Notes under the pieces: model-generated | Databases searched by the model: none | Told to the model about the DNA's origin: nothing | What the model saw: only the letters and a program-made list of their open reading frames with translations | Sequence record: OZ346219.1 | Length of the DNA: 64,000 nucleotides | Source: a phage | Reading direction: 5' to 3' (one strand) | Position numbers and translations under genes: made by a program | Shown here: positions 1,206-20,699 of the stretch, in pieces | Numbering within the stretch: position 1 is the first letter of the stretch | Layout: the number at the start of each line of letters is the position of its first letter

Positions 1206-1373
1206 TTATTTGTTAATTTCCGGTGCGTTGCTCGGATAGTAACCTTCTTTAACACCCAGATATTTTGCAACCATCCCTACAATCTTCTGTGCTACTACAA
1301 TGTCAAATTTCAGATAATCTTCGCCGTGGGTTTCAATGATATATGCTTCACATGCTGCTTTAGTCTCGAACAT
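1206..1373 (-). CDS. small hypothetical protein (55 aa), duplicate copy 1
   Basis: Hand translation MFETKAACEAYIIETHGEDYLKFDIVVAQKIVGMVAKYLGVKEGYYPSNAPEINK; near-identical second copy at 4492-4659; promoter cassette upstream. Confidence 0.4.
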   Translation of the reverse strand: MFETKAACEAYIIETHGEDYLKFDIVVAQKIVGMVAKYLGVKEGYYPSNAPEINK

Positions 1374-1406
1374 TTTGATTCTCCTATTTCGTTTCGTTAT
1401 GTGTGT

Positions 1407-1435
1407 ATTATAGGGGATCTCCCGATCCCCGTCAA
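1407..1435 (-). promoter_or_regulatory. early-type promoter cassette with spacer palindrome
   Basis: TTGACG, 17-bp spacer GGGATCGGGAGATCCCC, TATAAT. Confidence 0.6.
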
Positions 1436-4691: not shown

Positions 4692-4720
4692 ATTATAGGG
4701 GATCACCGATCCCCTGTCAA
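4692..4720 (-). promoter_or_regulatory. early-type promoter cassette with spacer palindrome
   Basis: TTGACA, spacer GGGGATCGGTGATCCCC, TATAAT. Confidence 0.6.
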
Positions 4721-14321: not shown

Positions 14322-14540
14322 CTACTTTTTAATGACAAGTTCGAATTTTGCTACCTTGCGTCCTCGTTTATTGAAAGCAACCCACGGACGGTTTTCAATG
14401 TAGAACAATTCTTCGCCAATAATGAATACTGGCTGATTGTAAAGGCGACCCATCAGGTCACGCTGGCGAATGGTAGTAGATTCGTATACTTCGCCTACTA
14501 CAAAGTGTTTGCTGATAGAGTCGGTGCAAGTAAATTTCAT
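14322..14540 (-). CDS. hypothetical protein (72 aa)
   Basis: ORF behind promoter cassette 14574-14602. Confidence 0.4.
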   Translation of the reverse strand: MKFTCTDSISKHFVVGEVYESTTIRQRDLMGRLYNQPVFIIGEELFYIENRPWVAFNKRGRKVAKFELVIKK

Positions 14541-14928: not shown

Positions 14929-15405
14929 TTAATCATGACCGTGATTTGCAATATCCGCTCGCGTCTTATCTTTGTGATTTCCTACGTCAAAGACACGATA
15001 ACCATTTTCACGCAAAACTTTAATCACTTCTGGGTTATCCTCAAAGACTCCGACAACTTCATCTTTATCAAAGGATTTAATTACCTCTAATTTGATGTGA
15101 TAATCTTTACGGGAATCGGTACGGCCTCTCATAAAGATTTTATCAAAACACACCCCGTTAGAAATTAACCAATCAATTGTTTCCATGTAAGCATGTGAAC
15201 TTCGTCCGGTGAGGATGTAAATCAAATGCCCGTTGTCGGAAAGAGCATTGATAACACGGATTACATCGTAAATGGGGGAATCTCCCCCACATGCCTTGTT
15301 ATATTCGATCCATGACTCGACTTTATCAAGATTTTCGGTTGGCATCTTTGCTAGTCGATGCGTTGGATCTGTGATCGTAAAATCTAAATCGACAAAATAT
15401 ATCAT
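14929..15405 (-). CDS. HAD-superfamily phosphatase-like protein
   Basis: N-terminal FVDLDFTIT (DxDxT) motif; 158 aa; 4-nt overlap with nrdB stop. Confidence 0.55.
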   Translation of the reverse strand: MIYFVDLDFTITDPTHRLAKMPTENLDKVESWIEYNKACGGDSPIYDVIRVINALSDNGHLIYILTGRSSHAYMETIDWLISNGVCFDKIFMRGRTDSRKDYHIKLEVIKSFDKDEVVGVFEDNPEVIKVLRENGYRVFDVGNHKDKTRADIANHGHD

Positions 15406-16562
15406 AGATATTTCCCGAATCGGTTGTAGTCATCGTCTGTTAAATCGGTATTAACCTGAGATACCAGATACATAATCTCTACTTCCTGCGCCGCGTTTTG
15501 AACTTCGTCAGAGTTCAACCATTTACGCATCCACGGTAACGGATGACGACGAACACTAAACGGGCTTTTCAGTCCGGCAGCACGCATACGGGAATCTGCC
15601 AGGTATTCTACATAGGTTTTCAGAATTTCCGGTGACAGGTTAGGAATTGCCCCCATTGCGAATAGGTGGTCTACCCATTCTTTTTCTTGCTCGACAACAT
15701 CCAGAAAGATTTTCGTTGCTTCGTCTTCAAGTTCTTCCGCAATCTGTTTCCACTCATCACCATCAGCCCCCGTTTGCCATTGACGAATAATGTATTGTGT
15801 GCCTTTTAAGTGAAGTTGTTCATCACGCGCAATAAATTTCATGATCTTCGCGTTGCCTTCCAGTAAACCACGTTCGGCAAAGCTGAAAGTACATGCAAAG
15901 GACACATAAAAACGAATTGCTTCCAGTGCATTGACGCAGTGTGCACACAGATAAATCGAAGCCATCAGATCTCGTTTTGTATCTTCAAAAAATCTTCTTG
16001 CATCATCTAATGCTGTCTGGTCGTCTCGTTCTTCCCAATAGCGGAGATCTTCTTTTGCATTCTCATACTTACGAATCCAATAAAGAACATCATCATAATA
16101 TTTCCCGATAGATTCCGCTCGCTTCATGATAGCAGGGTTATCGATGATCTGGTCGAACTCACTAGCCGGATCAATGAAACAGTTACGCATAATGTGTGTA
16201 TAGCTTCGGCTATGAATCGTTTCGCTGAATGTCCATGTTTGCAACCATGTATCGAGAGTTGGATCAGATACAATTGGACCAAATGCTGCGGACGGTGCGC
16301 GACCTTGAATAGAATCAAGTAATGTCTGATACTTCAAGTTTTCAGTAAAGAAACGCTTTTCAACGTCACCCATATTAAGATATTGAATGCGGTCGGTTGC
16401 AAGTGAAATTTCTTCGGGGCGCCAGAAAAATGACAATTGCTTTTCGATCAGTTCTTCAAATACTTGATGACGCTGAATATCATAGCGAGCGATACCCAAC
16501 CCACTACCCAGAAACATTGGTTCGTTCATAATATCAACATGTTCGCGGTTAAATACGCTCAT
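15402..16562 (-). CDS. nrdB: ribonucleotide reductase class Ia small subunit
   Basis: 386 aa uninterrupted ORF of NrdB length; paired with nrdA. Confidence 0.9.
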   Translation of the reverse strand: MSVFNREHVDIMNEPMFLGSGLGIARYDIQRHQVFEELIEKQLSFFWRPEEISLATDRIQYLNMGDVEKRFFTENLKYQTLLDSIQGRAPSAAFGPIVSDPTLDTWLQTWTFSETIHSRSYTHIMRNCFIDPASEFDQIIDNPAIMKRAESIGKYYDDVLYWIRKYENAKEDLRYWEERDDQTALDDARRFFEDTKRDLMASIYLCAHCVNALEAIRFYVSFACTFSFAERGLLEGNAKIMKFIARDEQLHLKGTQYIIRQWQTGADGDEWKQIAEELEDEATKIFLDVVEQEKEWVDHLFAMGAIPNLSPEILKTYVEYLADSRMRAAGLKSPFSVRRHPLPWMRKWLNSDEVQNAAQEVEIMYLVSQVNTDLTDDDYNRFGKYL

Positions 16563-16577
16563 TAATTCACCTCACTA

Positions 16578-16745
16578 TCACTTTTTAACACAAAAGAACT
16601 TAGTATTTCTGTTAACTTCGATATCCTGCTGCAATTCCTGCACAGCTTCAAAACAATTTTGATGTGATGAAAACTCTACGCTGGTAACAGTTCCTTTATT
16701 ATATGATCCTACGCTAACGGAAAGCAATAACCATAATGTAGCCAT
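16578..16745 (-). CDS. small hydrophobic-N-terminus protein (55 aa), tandem paralog
   Basis: Hand translation MATLWLLLSVSVGSYNKGTVTSVEF...FFCVKK; start overlaps upstream stop as TAATG. Confidence 0.35.
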   Translation of the reverse strand: MATLWLLLSVSVGSYNKGTVTSVEFSSHQNCFEAVQELQQDIEVNRNTKFFCVKK

Positions 16746-16918
16746 TAGTTCACCTTTTGTTTTTCAACGCAATATAGATTCATAAAGCGTTTATTGTCTT
16801 CACGGATAATCTCGCGAGCTTTAACGCAATCCTGCTTTGTTGCAAACTCAATGCTTGACATATTTCCGTAATTATACATTGAATTGCTGATTGCAATCAA
16901 TAACCATACAGTAGCCAT
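16745..16918 (-). CDS. small hydrophobic-N-terminus protein (57 aa), tandem paralog
   Basis: Hand translation MATVWLLIAISNSMYNYGNMSSIEF...LYCVEK; TAATG overlaps both sides. Confidence 0.35.
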   Translation of the reverse strand: MATVWLLIAISNSMYNYGNMSSIEFATKQDCVKAREIIREDNKRFMNLYCVEKQKVN

Positions 16919-17085
16919 TATTCGACAACCTCAAAGCATTTATCATCAGGAAGAATAGCCCATTCTATGCCGTATTCATCCTCAACGTAGTAGCAAGTCC
17001 CGTCATGTCGAGCATCATATACATCACCAACAACAAAGCTATCAGCTAGCTCAAAATCTACAGCAACACATTTTAATTTGGTCAT
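16918..17085 (-). CDS. small hypothetical protein (55 aa)
   Basis: Hand translation MTKLKCVAVDFELADSFVVGDVYDARHDGTCYYVEDEYG...; behind promoter cassette 17118-17146. Confidence 0.35.
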   Translation of the reverse strand: MTKLKCVAVDFELADSFVVGDVYDARHDGTCYYVEDEYGIEWAILPDDKCFEVVE

Positions 17086-17117
17086 AATAAAATCCTCACT
17101 TGTTTTTTGATGGTTGT

Positions 17118-17146
17118 ATTATAGCGGGGATTTCTCCCCGCGTCAA
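17118..17146 (-). promoter_or_regulatory. early-type promoter cassette with spacer palindrome
   Basis: TTGACG, spacer CGGGGAGAAATCCCCGC, TATAAT; precedes the three-ORF small-gene operon. Confidence 0.55.
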
Positions 17147-17154
17147 CACTTATT

Positions 17155-19398
17155 TTACAGCTTGCAAGATGAGCACTCGCTAGCGTCTTCCGTACCATCT
17201 GCACCATCACGCACGTTAGCGTAATACAGTGTCTTGAGGCCGTAATATTGAGCAAACAACATATCATCTAAAACATCAGCAATATCGACTTTACCAGTCT
17301 TATAAGTGCTTGGATCGTAGGATGTGTTGGAACTAATCGCCTGATCTACAAACTTCTGCATGATCGCTGCCAGTGTCAGATAAGGCTTGTTACCTTTCTT
17401 GATCAGTGTCCAAAGCAGGTCAATAACATCAGCATTATTCTCTACGTTCGGAATGACCTGATTAAATTGCCCTTCTTTCGATCCTTTAACCGATACAATC
17501 CCGCGAGGCGGTTCAATACCGTTTGTGCTGTTAGATACCTGAGAAGACGACTCACACGGCATCAGCGCCGAAAGTGTACTGTTACGAATGCCATATTTTT
17601 TCAGGTCTTCGCGCAGTTCTTCCCAATCCATCTCATACACCGGATCAACCAGTTCATCTACTGTCTTTTTGTACCAGTCGATAGGCAGTTCACCGCGACC
17701 ATAGCGTGTTTCGTGCATCAGTTCGCAAGCACCCTTCTCTTTAGCCAGTCGCACACTAGCCTTAATCAGAGCATATTGCAAGCGTTCAAACGTTTTATGC
17801 GTAAACTCGTTAGCGTCTTCATATGTGAAGAAATTATCTGCTAGATATGATGCAAAGTTAGTAACACCAACACCCAGAGAGCGACGTTTTTTGGCTGTCA
17901 GAGCTTGTTCTACAGGATAATCCTGATAATCTAACAGGTTGTCAAGTGCACGCACCATAACCATAGCAATGCGTTCTACTTCTTCCATATTTTCGATATC
18001 GAAATTACCTAAAACATATGCTGCCAAAGTACATAGGCTAATTTCTGAATCATCACGACCCATCGGTTTAGTAGGCAGTGCAATTTCACAACACAGGTTA
18101 GATTGTTTAATCGGTGCTACATTACGAATAAACGCCCCGTGATTGTTCATGTTGTCTGTGAACGTTGGGTAGATTCGACCAGTGTTAAAACGTTCAATTG
18201 CCACCGCTAAAAACAGGTCTTCGGCTTTAACACGAGTTTTACGAACACTCGGATCTTTTTCCAGTTTTTCGTAAAGTTGGCGGAAACCTTCCTCATCTCG
18301 GAAGTATAGATCCCACAACAAGCCACCCGCAACATCTGGACTAAACAGAGTAATGTAATCCCGTTTAAGGAATCGCTCTACCATCAGGTTATTAATCTGT
18401 ACGCCGTAGTCAAGATGGCGAATGCGGTTATCTTCCACGCCCTTATTGTTCTTTAACACAATCAGACTTTCAAACTCTAAATGCCACATTGGGTAATAGA
18501 GTGTCGCTGCCCCGCCACGAATACCGCCTTGTGAGCATGACTTAACGGCAGTCTGAAAATGTTTCCAGAATGGGATAACGCCAGTATGACGAACTTCACC
18601 ATGCCCGATCTTAGATCCTTCCGCGCGAATCATGCCAGCGTTGATACCGATACCAGCACGCTTGCTAATATACTTAATGATTGCATTTGCGGTTTCATTA
18701 ATACCCTGCAATGAGTCATCACTTTCGATCACCACACACGAACTAAATTGGCGTGTTGGGGTACGCACACCTGCCATAATCGGAGTAGGCAGAGAGATTT
18801 GCTTATTCGCAACCGCATTATAAAAATCAATCACATGTTCAAGTCGATTTTCGGTCTCTTCTTGATGCAAGCACATACCGATCAGCATATACGCAAATTG
18901 CGGTGTTTCGATGATTTTCTTAGTGCTGCGATCCTGAACAAGATATTTCTCTTTTAACTGCATCGCACCAGCATAGGTCATTTTAAAATCAAGTTTATGG
19001 TCGATGAATTTCTCCAGATATTCCACTTCTTCACGGGAATACTTTTGCAGAATTTCGCGATCATATTTTCCGGTTGCAATATTACGCTCAATATGGCTGT
19101 AAAAATCAATCGGTTGGAATTGACCGTATACTGATTTGCGAAGCGCGAACATTGCAAGGTTACTTGCTACATATTGATAATCGGGTGTTTCTACAGTAAT
19201 GTTATCTGCTGCGACCTTAATCAATACTTTCTGGATATCGTTGGTAGACATACCTTCTGTCAGAAGTGGTTCAACCATATCAAACAATTCATATGGATCA
19301 ACGTTATGACCTTCGGCTGCCGCTTCCAGAATTTTCATTACTTTTTCTTTTTCAAAAGGAACAGTCAGACCGGAAGACTTAACAACATTTTTAATCAT
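17155..19398 (-). CDS. nrdA: ribonucleotide reductase class Ia large subunit
   Basis: 747 aa; ATP-cone N-terminus, C-terminal CSSCKL-type Cys pair. Confidence 0.95.
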   Translation of the reverse strand: MIKNVVKSSGLTVPFEKEKVMKILEAAAEGHNVDPYELFDMVEPLLTEGMSTNDIQKVLIKVAADNITVETPDYQYVASNLAMFALRKSVYGQFQPIDFYSHIERNIATGKYDREILQKYSREEVEYLEKFIDHKLDFKMTYAGAMQLKEKYLVQDRSTKKIIETPQFAYMLIGMCLHQEETENRLEHVIDFYNAVANKQISLPTPIMAGVRTPTRQFSSCVVIESDDSLQGINETANAIIKYISKRAGIGINAGMIRAEGSKIGHGEVRHTGVIPFWKHFQTAVKSCSQGGIRGGAATLYYPMWHLEFESLIVLKNNKGVEDNRIRHLDYGVQINNLMVERFLKRDYITLFSPDVAGGLLWDLYFRDEEGFRQLYEKLEKDPSVRKTRVKAEDLFLAVAIERFNTGRIYPTFTDNMNNHGAFIRNVAPIKQSNLCCEIALPTKPMGRDDSEISLCTLAAYVLGNFDIENMEEVERIAMVMVRALDNLLDYQDYPVEQALTAKKRRSLGVGVTNFASYLADNFFTYEDANEFTHKTFERLQYALIKASVRLAKEKGACELMHETRYGRGELPIDWYKKTVDELVDPVYEMDWEELREDLKKYGIRNSTLSALMPCESSSQVSNSTNGIEPPRGIVSVKGSKEGQFNQVIPNVENNADVIDLLWTLIKKGNKPYLTLAAIMQKFVDQAISSNTSYDPSTYKTGKVDIADVLDDMLFAQYYGLKTLYYANVRDGADGTEDASECSSCKL

Positions 19399-19466: not shown

Positions 19467-20699
19467 TTATACTGCCATTTGAGCGGTGATTGCTGGATGG
19501 CTTTGATAGTTGTGAATTTTAAAGTCTTTCGGAGTCTTTGTCAATACCTCATCTAAAGATTTAAATTCCGGCAACTCAATCGTTGGTTTATCAAACGGAA
19601 CACGGCTTAACTGTTCCATAACTTGATCAAAATGGTTTTTGTAAATGTGAGTATCTCCACCAGAGAAAATCAGTTCTCCTACCTCAAGATCACACATTTT
19701 CGCTATGATGTGAGTTAACAGCGCATAGCTGGCGACGTTAAAGGGCAAGCCTAAAAAGCTGTCTACGCTTCTCTGAAACCACATACAAGACAGTTTACCT
19801 TCATTGACGTAGAATTGCACGAAAGGATGACATACACCCAATACAGCATTATGTGTTCCTTGTACGTTCCATGAGTCAATAATGATCCGGCGATCCGTTG
19901 GATTGTTTTTAATTTGTTCAATCACGTTTTGTAACTGGTCTTCCCAAATCTTCGGGCGATAGACATATTCTTCATCGTCTTTAGTGCTCGATGTGTCTAC
20001 GTCCATACTAGCAAAGATCGTGGTATCTGGTGCTAAAATATCCCCACCCAGATAATCACTATCAAGCAGATAACCGAAATAACCATCATCTACCCATTCC
20101 TGGAATCCCCACAAGCAATATGCATCATTAACAAAATTAGATTGAGTCTTCCAGTGGTCTGCTACTAAGAATAGATTATACTCAGAATCAAACTCTTCAT
20201 AACGCATACCACGCCAGATAGCACATAAACGGTCTTCTGTTTCATTGGTTGGCGTAAAGTCTTCTACCCACGGGTGCTTAAATGTATGTGCATATTTGCT
20301 CTTAACGCGCTTAATTTTGATTTCACCGTGTGGATGAATCGGTTTGCGTCGCCATGCCATACCATACATATTGCCGACATTATAACCATTGAATCGCAAA
20401 GGATTCTTTTCTTTCATATCAAGACAGTTGCCGCGCCAAATGTCGAAGGCTTCTTCGTCAAACTTACCGCGTGTAATTTCCTGTAAGCGACGGCGGTCAA
20501 GTGATCCCTCCATAAACCATAGCAATTCGCCAATTACAGAGGCTGTAGCCATCTTTTTAGTGGTTAGTAAGGGGAAACCCTTGCTTAAATCAATTCGCAT
20601 CTCTGCGCCGAATTTAGAGAGCGTACCTACCCCCGTGCGGTCTTCACGAGGCCAGCCATTATCAAGAACATCACGCAATAGTTTCAAATATTCTTTCAT
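19467..20699 (-). CDS. td: thymidylate synthase with a large internal insertion
   Basis: N-terminal DRTGVGTLS...GFPLLTTKK and C-terminal DSFLGLPFNVASYALLTHIIAKMCDLEVGELIFSGGDTHIYKNH match ThyA; 410 aa instead of about 265-290. Confidence 0.9.
   Translation of the reverse strand: MKEYLKLLRDVLDNGWPREDRTGVGTLSKFGAEMRIDLSKGFPLLTTKKMATASVIGELLWFMEGSLDRRRLQEITRGKFDEEAFDIWRGNCLDMKEKNPLRFNGYNVGNMYGMAWRRKPIHPHGEIKIKRVKSKYAHTFKHPWVEDFTPTNETEDRLCAIWRGMRYEEFDSEYNLFLVADHWKTQSNFVNDAYCLWGFQEWVDDGYFGYLLDSDYLGGDILAPDTTIFASMDVDTSSTKDDEEYVYRPKIWEDQLQNVIEQIKNNPTDRRIIIDSWNVQGTHNAVLGVCHPFVQFYVNEGKLSCMWFQRSVDSFLGLPFNVASYALLTHIIAKMCDLEVGELIFSGGDTHIYKNHFDQVMEQLSRVPFDKPTIELPEFKSLDEVLTKTPKDFKIHNYQSHPAITAQMAV

Follow-up and report, generated by a model that had tools for sequence, protein, structure and literature searches.

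Organization of the nrdA–nrdB interval

The interval between nrdA (19398..17155) and nrdB (16562..15402), both encoded on the minus strand of the window (the whole 64,000-nucleotide stretch of sequence record OZ346219.1 analysed here), contains three small open reading frames in the same orientation, as the first-pass annotation had described. ORF1 (17085..16918, 55 aa) corresponds to RB49p233 and belongs to phrog_16302, while ORF2 (16918..16745, 57 aa) and ORF3 (16745..16578, 55 aa) correspond to RB49p232 and RB49p231, respectively, and both belong to phrog_5579. The upstream gene nrdA is separated from ORF1 by a spacer of 69 nt, and 15 nt lie between the ORF3 stop and the start of nrdB, which carries its own Shine-Dalgarno (SD) site, GAGGTGA. 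The three frames are indeed joined by stop/start overlaps: the ORF1/ORF2 and ORF2/ORF3 junctions both read TAATG, each with one shared base (16918 and 16745), and these junctions are kept in Krischvirus relatives.

A 901-base query across the trio is 99.4% identical to phage Whisky and 94–98% identical to some 55 further Krischvirus genomes, identifying the source of the window as a Krischvirus, an RB49-like T4-type coliphage. The three ORFs are not new, being already annotated in RB49 and dozens of relatives; in RB49, Phi1, GEC-3S, KFS-EC and others exactly these three CDS are present, all labelled "hypothetical". Searches of the literature found no mention of the RB49p231–p233 locus tags or accessions, and no Krischvirus transcriptome. 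Besides ORF2 and ORF3, no further paralogs were found within the window. A 72-aa ORF at 14540..14322 with an FVVGEVYE motif was considered as a relative of ORF1 and rejected, its match (E = 0.22) not being significant.

The promoter cassette upstream of ORF1

A single promoter cassette precedes the trio, again in agreement with the first-pass annotation. It extends over 17146..17118 on the minus strand and reads TTGACG-CGGGGAGAAATCCCCGC-TATAAT, with the −35 box TTGACG at 17146..17141, the −10 box TATAAT at 17123..17118, a 17-nt spacer and 11 of 12 matches to the sigma-70 consensus. A hairpin, GCGGGGA-GAAA-TCCCCGC (17141..17124), is made up of the spacer and the final G of the −35 box; it consists of a 7-bp GC stem capped by a GAAA loop and has a calculated dG of −13.7 kcal/mol. 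Across the window the pattern TTGAC-N16-18-TATAAT is found 11 times, exclusively on the minus strand, compared with an expectation of 0.29, and two further copies also enclose GGGG..CCCC spacer hairpins. Within ORF2, a further promoter-like sequence (16900..16871) was rejected, as it falls within chance expectation.

This architecture is that of the promoter-early stem-loop (PeSL) of RB49 and phi1, in which a sigma-70 promoter is combined with a stem-loop (Arbiol et al. 2010, PMC2839356) and which lies after the stop codon of the upstream gene and before the SD site and start of a small ORFan (PMC2839356). Specifically, the cassette has promoter boxes at 16–18 nt spacing, a G/C-tract stem-loop, an intergenic position and a location at a module boundary, and the elements follow one another in the order nrdA stop (TAAAATAA, within the AT-rich leader of the PeSL), PeSL, GAGGA and ORF1 ATG. 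Apart from single-base changes, the PeSL is kept in all 16 aligned Krischvirus loci. In Delraymugoa one G of the hairpin stem is replaced by A, and in the same phage a DNA methyltransferase gene is inserted between two near-identical PeSL copies. PeSL elements are known to mediate modular shuffling (PMC2839356), and the flanking copies of Delraymugoa are the footprint expected of such PeSL-mediated module exchange.

Terminator scanning detected no terminator-like site from ORF1 to nrdB and no U-tract after the PeSL hairpin; neither the late-promoter core (TATAAATA) nor a MotA box was found between the PeSL and nrdB. Judged from these sequence features, the trio and nrdB are probably co-transcribed. 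Reporter assays have demonstrated promoter and attenuator activity for other PeSL copies (PMC2839356). As the hairpin at nrdA–nrdB is accompanied by neither a U-tract nor a terminator, its putative attenuation is proposed by analogy with those copies.

Coding status and translation

Polymorphism among 11–13 intact Krischvirus copies reveals purifying selection on each of the three ORFs, with pN/pS values of 0.21 for ORF1, 0.067 for ORF2 and 0.17 for ORF3, compared with 0.013 and 0.053 for the flanking nrdA and nrdB. Most of the polymorphism in the trio resides at third codon positions. With pN/pS well below 1 and the frames kept in relatives, the trio consists of real coding genes. The conservation of the reading frames, the lack of which the first-pass annotation had named as refuting its reading, holds overall, with the exceptions that ORF1 is broken in some genomes and that JSE is without ORF2 and ORF3.

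Each ORF is preceded by an SD site of its own: GAGGA for ORF1 (17093..17097, minus strand; 7 nt ahead of the ATG, pairing with the 3' end of the 16S rRNA at −7.6 kcal/mol), GAGG for ORF2 and AGGTGA for ORF3. The stop/start overlaps thus permit the coupled translation that had been proposed for the trio. Such coupling is probably not obligatory, since each ORF has its own SD site and ORF2 and ORF3 stay intact behind a truncated ORF1, which suggests that any dependence of a downstream ORF on translation of the upstream one is at most partial.

Plasticity of the interval

The content of the nrdA–nrdB gap varies among Krischvirus genomes, marking it as a small site of plasticity. In JSE the order is nrdA, PeSL, ORF1, homing endonuclease and nrdB, with the nrdB leader directly following the ORF1 stop, and neither ORF2 nor ORF3 is detectable anywhere in that genome. 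SSG23 carries the JSE-type endonuclease gene between ORF3 and nrdB, and G2494 has an HNH endonuclease within the interval. In G37-3 and FL20 a single paralog is present, which begins with the ORF2 head (MATV) and continues with the ORF3 body (WLLLSVSVG...); this chimera is the product of unequal crossing-over between the two genes, whose 5' ends are near-identical. The metagenomic protein P0017 is another ORF2/ORF3 chimera. The copy number of ORF2/ORF3 is therefore 0 in JSE, 1 in the chimeric genomes and 2 in most.

ORF1 has been inactivated independently by three kinds of lesion: ELT3 and G37-3 carry an amber codon at position 12, kaaroe has a +1 frameshift within a run of T, and FL20 has lost 2 bases. 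In every ORF1-broken genome the PeSL and the downstream paralogs are intact. Some of these lesions could be sequencing errors; the occurrence of three different kinds in different lineages argues for real losses. Because ORF1 has been inactivated in three ways and ORF2/ORF3 have been lost or merged in some genomes, the set is dispensable, and all three genes are conditionally useful and not essential.

ORF2 and ORF3 belong to a phage-wide two-cysteine family

ORF2 and ORF3 share 38% identity (BLASTP E = 2e-15) and both match the phrog_5579 HMM of PHROGs v4 from end to end, ORF2 with E = 6.8e-24 (profile positions 1–52 of 52) and ORF3 with E = 1.6e-23, confirming them as paralogs. A word-indexed search for relatives returned only Krischvirus-like ones, while a profile search of 1.84 billion representative proteins retrieved 70 at E <= 1e-3, nearly all of 50–65 aa; among 45 diverse relatives from this search, 42 match phrog_5579. 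The conserved cysteines that had been noted in the two proteins prove to be a family feature: C31 and C50 of ORF2 align with the cysteines of ORF3, and the pair is invariant in all 45 aligned members, with a spacing of 15–23 residues in all but one. The family signature reads x(1-5)-[VI]-W-L-L-I-x-[VI]-S-x-G-x-Y-N-x-G ... E-F-[ST]-S-x-x-x-C ... C-[VI]. AlphaFold predicts a beta-beta-alpha-beta fold for ORF2, with a model pLDDT of 80.9.

Searches of Pfam, NCBIfam and PADLOC assigned no family to ORF1, ORF2 or ORF3, and Pfam gave only scattered single sub-threshold matches for the 45 relatives. Foldseek returned nothing significant. Neither did a PDB sequence search with both family profiles, in which the best match, UPF0339/DUF1508 at E = 0.23, is a weak lead only. 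No phrog_5579 relative was found in a scan of bacterial genomes, and tblastn of distant family members against cultured phages, as well as scans of IMG/VR, returned only Krischvirus. Tandem duplication of phrog_5579 is seen only in Krischvirus. On contig L010 a weak second member lies about 4 kb away, not in tandem. phrog_5579 is thus a phage-wide family of ~55-aa two-cysteine proteins that has no Pfam model and no described function or structure.

Genomic neighbourhoods and a possible link to RNR

Twelve distant phrog_5579 members were traced to their contigs, giving 13 contexts together with the window, and RNR genes are located no more than about 2 kb away in 5 of these (the window, P0018, P0064, P0060 and P0110). 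On a T4-like contig, P0018 is present once, flanked by nrdB and by an nrdA that a homing endonuclease splits; P0064 is found one gene away from nrdA/nrdB in two phages that encode ThyX; P0060 sits between ThyA and DHFR, with a divergent RNR and a glutaredoxin further on; and P0110 is encoded two genes after nrdB. In addition, P0108 adjoins a dCMP deaminase gene. The remaining 8 contexts have no RNR nearby; besides that of P0108, they comprise a site between ligase and primase-helicase genes, another between DnaB-like helicase and PolA genes, sites in or close to sugar-biosynthesis clusters, a position after rIIB and surroundings of small ORFs.

These neighbourhoods bear on the possibility that phrog_5579 proteins, including ORF2 and ORF3, are accessory factors of RNR or of a dNTP-synthesis complex, acting as a thiol-based redox partner or as an assembly or stabilising subunit through the invariant Cys pair. 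The five RNR-proximal contexts, the dCMP deaminase beside P0108 and the placement of C31 in the first turn of the predicted helix all favour such a role, and the probability of finding at least 4 of 12 lineages near RNR is 0.0075 at a baseline of 7%. This probability rises to 0.29 at the realistic baseline of 23%, which allows for the clustering of small genes in early/DNA-metabolism regions, so that the recurrence near RNR/thymidylate genes is suggestive and not proven. Moreover, RNR is absent from the neighbourhood in the majority of contexts, JSE retains nrdA and nrdB without any copy, the td-nrdA-nrdB region of T4 has no homolog, and the family shows neither a CxxC motif nor similarity to NrdH, NrdI or YfaE. 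Because the statistics depend on the baseline and JSE has lost both copies, a dedicated RNR role is rated as unlikely. A fuller version, in which phrog_5579 works with the RNR or thymidylate/dNTP machinery as a redox or assembly partner and the Krischvirus tandem is a heterodimeric form produced by coupled translation, would explain the recurrence beside RNR genes in unrelated phages, and is likewise given little probability.

The hydrophobic N-terminus

The N-termini of ORF2 and ORF3 had been described as signal-peptide-like, a reading that the family-wide comparison does not sustain. Across the 45 members the strict hydrophobic run spans a median of 7 residues (range 5–9), and K/R precedes it in only 7; ORF2 and ORF3 themselves start with MAT-, with no K/R. 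The best 19-residue hydropathy reaches 0.61 in ORF2 and 0.81 in ORF3, below the usual transmembrane threshold of 1.6. Family conservation peaks at positions 4–11, with 2.80 bits/column compared with 1.58 for the helix, and this stretch includes a nearly fixed Trp-Leu-Leu. Signal peptides are normally less conserved than the mature part. ORF2 and ORF3 thus lack three features of a Sec signal, namely a positively charged n-region, an h-region of roughly 10–15 residues and a signal less conserved than the mature protein. In the AlphaFold model the N-terminus forms strand beta1 of the compact fold, with a pLDDT of 83 over residues 1–10. Since the segment is short, mostly without K/R, most conserved and predicted as a core strand, the signal-peptide reading is unsupported, and the hydrophobic N-termini are best read, with the model as a guide, as a buried beta-strand.

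Export is nevertheless retained as an alternative, because an S-x-[SG] motif fits the −3/−1 rule and the Cys pair suits a periplasmic disulfide. ORF2 and ORF3 would then leave the cytoplasm by means of a very short Sec signal, with cleavage at residue 13 behind S-x-S or S-x-G, releasing a ~40-aa peptide that a C31–C50 disulfide stabilises in the periplasm and that acts on the envelope, for instance in superinfection exclusion or in lysis timing. The small residues S11-x-S13 or G13 follow the hydrophobic N-terminus as such cleavage would require, and two invariant cysteines are typical of periplasmic disulfides; the small residues are equally part of the conserved S-x-G-x-Y-N-x-G loop. Set against export are the short run, which lacks a preceding K/R in 38 of 45 members, the low hydropathy, the location of the highest family conservation in precisely the segment that would be removed, and its confident prediction as a strand within the sheet. 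Known functional Sec signals are longer than 13 residues. Export is accordingly regarded as improbable.

ORF1, an acidic protein with a predicted small beta-barrel

ORF1 matches the phrog_16302 HMM with E = 1.2e-41 over profile positions 1–55 of 55 and is found only in Krischvirus. The protein is highly acidic, with a pI of 4.06 and a net charge of about −10, and is predicted to adopt a five-stranded SH3-like beta-barrel that is superposable on SH3 domains, although only one of five AlphaFold runs was confident (89.9, compared with 60–70 for the others). DUF7244 (PF23896) was rejected as its family, the score of 16.1 bits (E = 0.012) falling short of the Pfam gathering threshold of 27.

The trio, ORF1 especially, might alternatively serve as counter-defence or defence-trigger proteins that are small, early and dispensable and bind components of host immunity, ORF1 acting via its highly acidic surface. 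The early promoter, the small size, the variable presence and the repeated inactivation of ORF1 are consistent with this role, as are its pI and charge. Gp54, itself a non-essential small barrel of unknown function, binds CapRel, a defence protein, and triggers it (PMC11578894). ORF1 resembles Gp54 only at the level of the fold, and neither PADLOC nor any other family link connects the trio with defence. SH3-like barrels are generic. A defence-related role is hence a minor contender, with only a slim chance of being correct.

An interpretation of the ORFs as fortuitous frames within a non-coding spacer, which their length below 60 aa and want of functional annotation would allow, is already refuted by the family-wide homologs in unrelated phage contigs and by the pN/pS values with their third-position polymorphism, and the confident fold predictions and the SD site before each ORF leave it next to no likelihood.

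Proposed role of the trio

The account that we consider probable sees the locus as an early-gene cassette headed by a PeSL, whose three small accessory genes are not essential and occupy the plastic nrdA–nrdB gap. Under this account, the hairpin would attenuate read-through from nrdA, and the promoter would start early transcription anew, reading into the trio and on into nrdB. ORF2 and ORF3 would be soluble cytoplasmic beta-beta-alpha-beta miniproteins in which, according to the model, the hydrophobic strand 1 is central and buried, and the face of the sheet not covered by the helix may drive their dimerisation. The homodimer would be ancestral and, as the existence of single-copy chimeras indicates, sufficient, while an ORF2/ORF3 heterodimer is possible, supplied at 1:1 through coupled translation. 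The predicted fold would bring Cys31, located in the first turn of the helix, and Cys50, close to where strand 3 ends, to the same end of the protein, and the pair could act there as a common thiol, disulfide or metal-bridging site. An invariant Cys pair would equally be expected of an exported peptide with a disulfide bond.

In the same cassette account, ORF1 would be an acidic SH3-like barrel that binds a host or phage partner, and the role of the trio would be conditional, whether in taking over the host, in counter-defence or in modulating the DNA-precursor machinery. Recombination in the near-identical 5' ends of ORF2 and ORF3 underlies the variation of their copy number between 0, 1 and 2.

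The three are unremarkable accessory genes that had been annotated before, and the regulatory cassette in front of them is of a known type. The importance of the locus is low, since the genes had been annotated as hypothetical and the cassette type was described in 2010, making this in essence a rediscovery. The modest added value lies in the reading of the N-termini as a buried strand, in the recognition of a widespread two-Cys family and in its recurrence near nucleotide-metabolism genes; were the RNR link true, the family would provide a new small accessory factor for a very well studied enzyme system.

Comparison with known systems

Among SH3-like small beta-barrels, Gp54 of phage Bas11 (9axb) and the SH3 domain of RecD (5ld2) serve as comparators for ORF1. 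Gp54 comprises six strands, compared with the five predicted for ORF1, and ORF1 is far more acidic; 9axb is not among the matches of the ORF1 profile to PDB sequences up to E = 10, and nothing ties ORF1 to CapRel. Because similarity at the sequence level is lacking, the likeness of ORF1 to Gp54 is one of analogy and not of membership.

The small proteins NrdH (glutaredoxin-like), YfaE (a 2Fe-2S ferredoxin) and NrdI (a flavodoxin) resemble ORF2 and ORF3 in being small and encoded beside nrdA/nrdB, and the conserved cysteines of ORF2 and ORF3 recall these RNR-linked redox proteins. ORF2 and ORF3 differ from them in having no CxxC motif, only two cysteines and a different predicted fold; YfaE needs four Cys ligands. 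Pfam gave no match to the NrdH, YfaE or NrdI families for the ORFs of the window or the 45 relatives.

The cassette itself corresponds closely to the published PeSLs, which were treated for RB49 and phi1 also by Comeau et al. 2014 (PMC4122927). A stem-loop within the promoter spacer is among the commonest PeSL placements (PMC2839356), and the nrdA–nrdB cassette likewise has consensus −35 and −10 boxes with a GGGG...CCCC stem-loop between them. Shared with the published elements are also the stop codon, here that of nrdA, in an AT-rich leader, the SD site and start of a small ORFan at the 3' end and, in Delraymugoa, the duplicated copies around an inserted gene module. Unlike the published PeSLs, the nrdA–nrdB cassette lies between two core genes and not in a large hyperplastic region; neither nrdA/nrdB nor this PeSL copy is named in PMC2839356 or PMC4122927.

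A parallel to the interval as a whole is the T4 nrdA-mobE-nrdB.1-nrdB interval. The T4 genes nrdB.1, nrdA.1 and nrdA.2 were rejected as relatives of ORF1–3, all HMM E values being above 0.2. The slot is the same one as in Krischvirus and takes optional cargo in both, with homing endonuclease genes filling it in T4, JSE, SSG23 and G2494.

Promoter cassettes and gene gain or loss around the trio

The window carries 11 perfect TTGAC-N16-18-TATAAT promoters, against a chance expectation of 0.29, and all lie on the minus strand (1407..1435, 4692..4720, 17118..17146 and eight more). In 3 of the 11, the spacer contains the GGGG...CCCC hairpin typical of the promoter-early stem-loop (PeSL) cassette. 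In phage Delraymugoa, an 840-bp DNA methyltransferase gene is inserted between nrdA and ORF1 and is flanked on either side by one of two near-identical PeSL copies (L020 455..483 and 1350..1378), making this insert a clean case of a PeSL-bounded gene module.

JSE (L014 1655..1750) and SSG23 (L024 1065..1739) share a homing endonuclease gene immediately 5' of nrdB. In JSE its presence coincides with the precise loss of ORF2 and ORF3; as a result, the ORF1 stop is followed there by the nrdB leader AGTGAGGTGAATTAAT. ORF1 itself varies in GEC-3S (L002 1015..1203), where an in-frame tandem duplication of 21 nt (VYDARRD/EYDARHD) extends the product to 62 aa. The closest GenBank record, that of Whisky (MZ504878), breaks nrdA and nrdB up into several fragmentary CDS labelled 'hypothetical protein'. 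In the window each of the two genes is intact, and frameshift errors in the Whisky record probably account for the fragments.

The phrog_5579 family

The family motif E-F-[ST]-S-x-x-x-C-x-x-A, located around ORF2 residues 24-34, shows a weak, sub-threshold resemblance to DUF1508/UPF0339 (PDB 3bid, E 0.23), and PF07411 matches one phrog_5579 member, likewise sub-threshold (E 0.033). On the contig encoding the distant member P0060, a second, weak phrog_5579-like ORF (L010 6167..6355; HMM E 3.7e-5) lies about 4 kb downstream of P0060, directly after a glutaredoxin gene and a Cys-rich CWC gene.

Split and apparently interrupted nucleotide-metabolism genes

The thymidylate synthase gene of the window (19467..20699, minus strand) encodes a 410-aa product, far above typical ThyA length. 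The Pfam Thymidylat_synt profile aligns to it in two separate stretches, residues 254-410 corresponding to profile positions 110-266, which implies a putative mid-enzyme insertion of about 140 aa. A 412-aa ThyA likewise occurs in L008, a T4-like metagenomic contig.

The nrdA gene of the T4-like contig carrying the distant member P0018 is split (L008 1753..4940 and L009) into ORFs of 476 and 324 aa, and the 237-aa ORF between them faintly matches an I-HmuI-like homing endonuclease. The ribonucleotide reductase large subunit there is a case of genes-in-pieces. In a ThyX-encoding phage contig, a 948-aa NrdA (L005 5586..8432) gives intein and LAGLIDADG matches, both weak. By comparison, the NrdA of its close relative L006 is uninterrupted at 577 aa, and the nrdB-nrdA gene order there is the reverse of that in L005.
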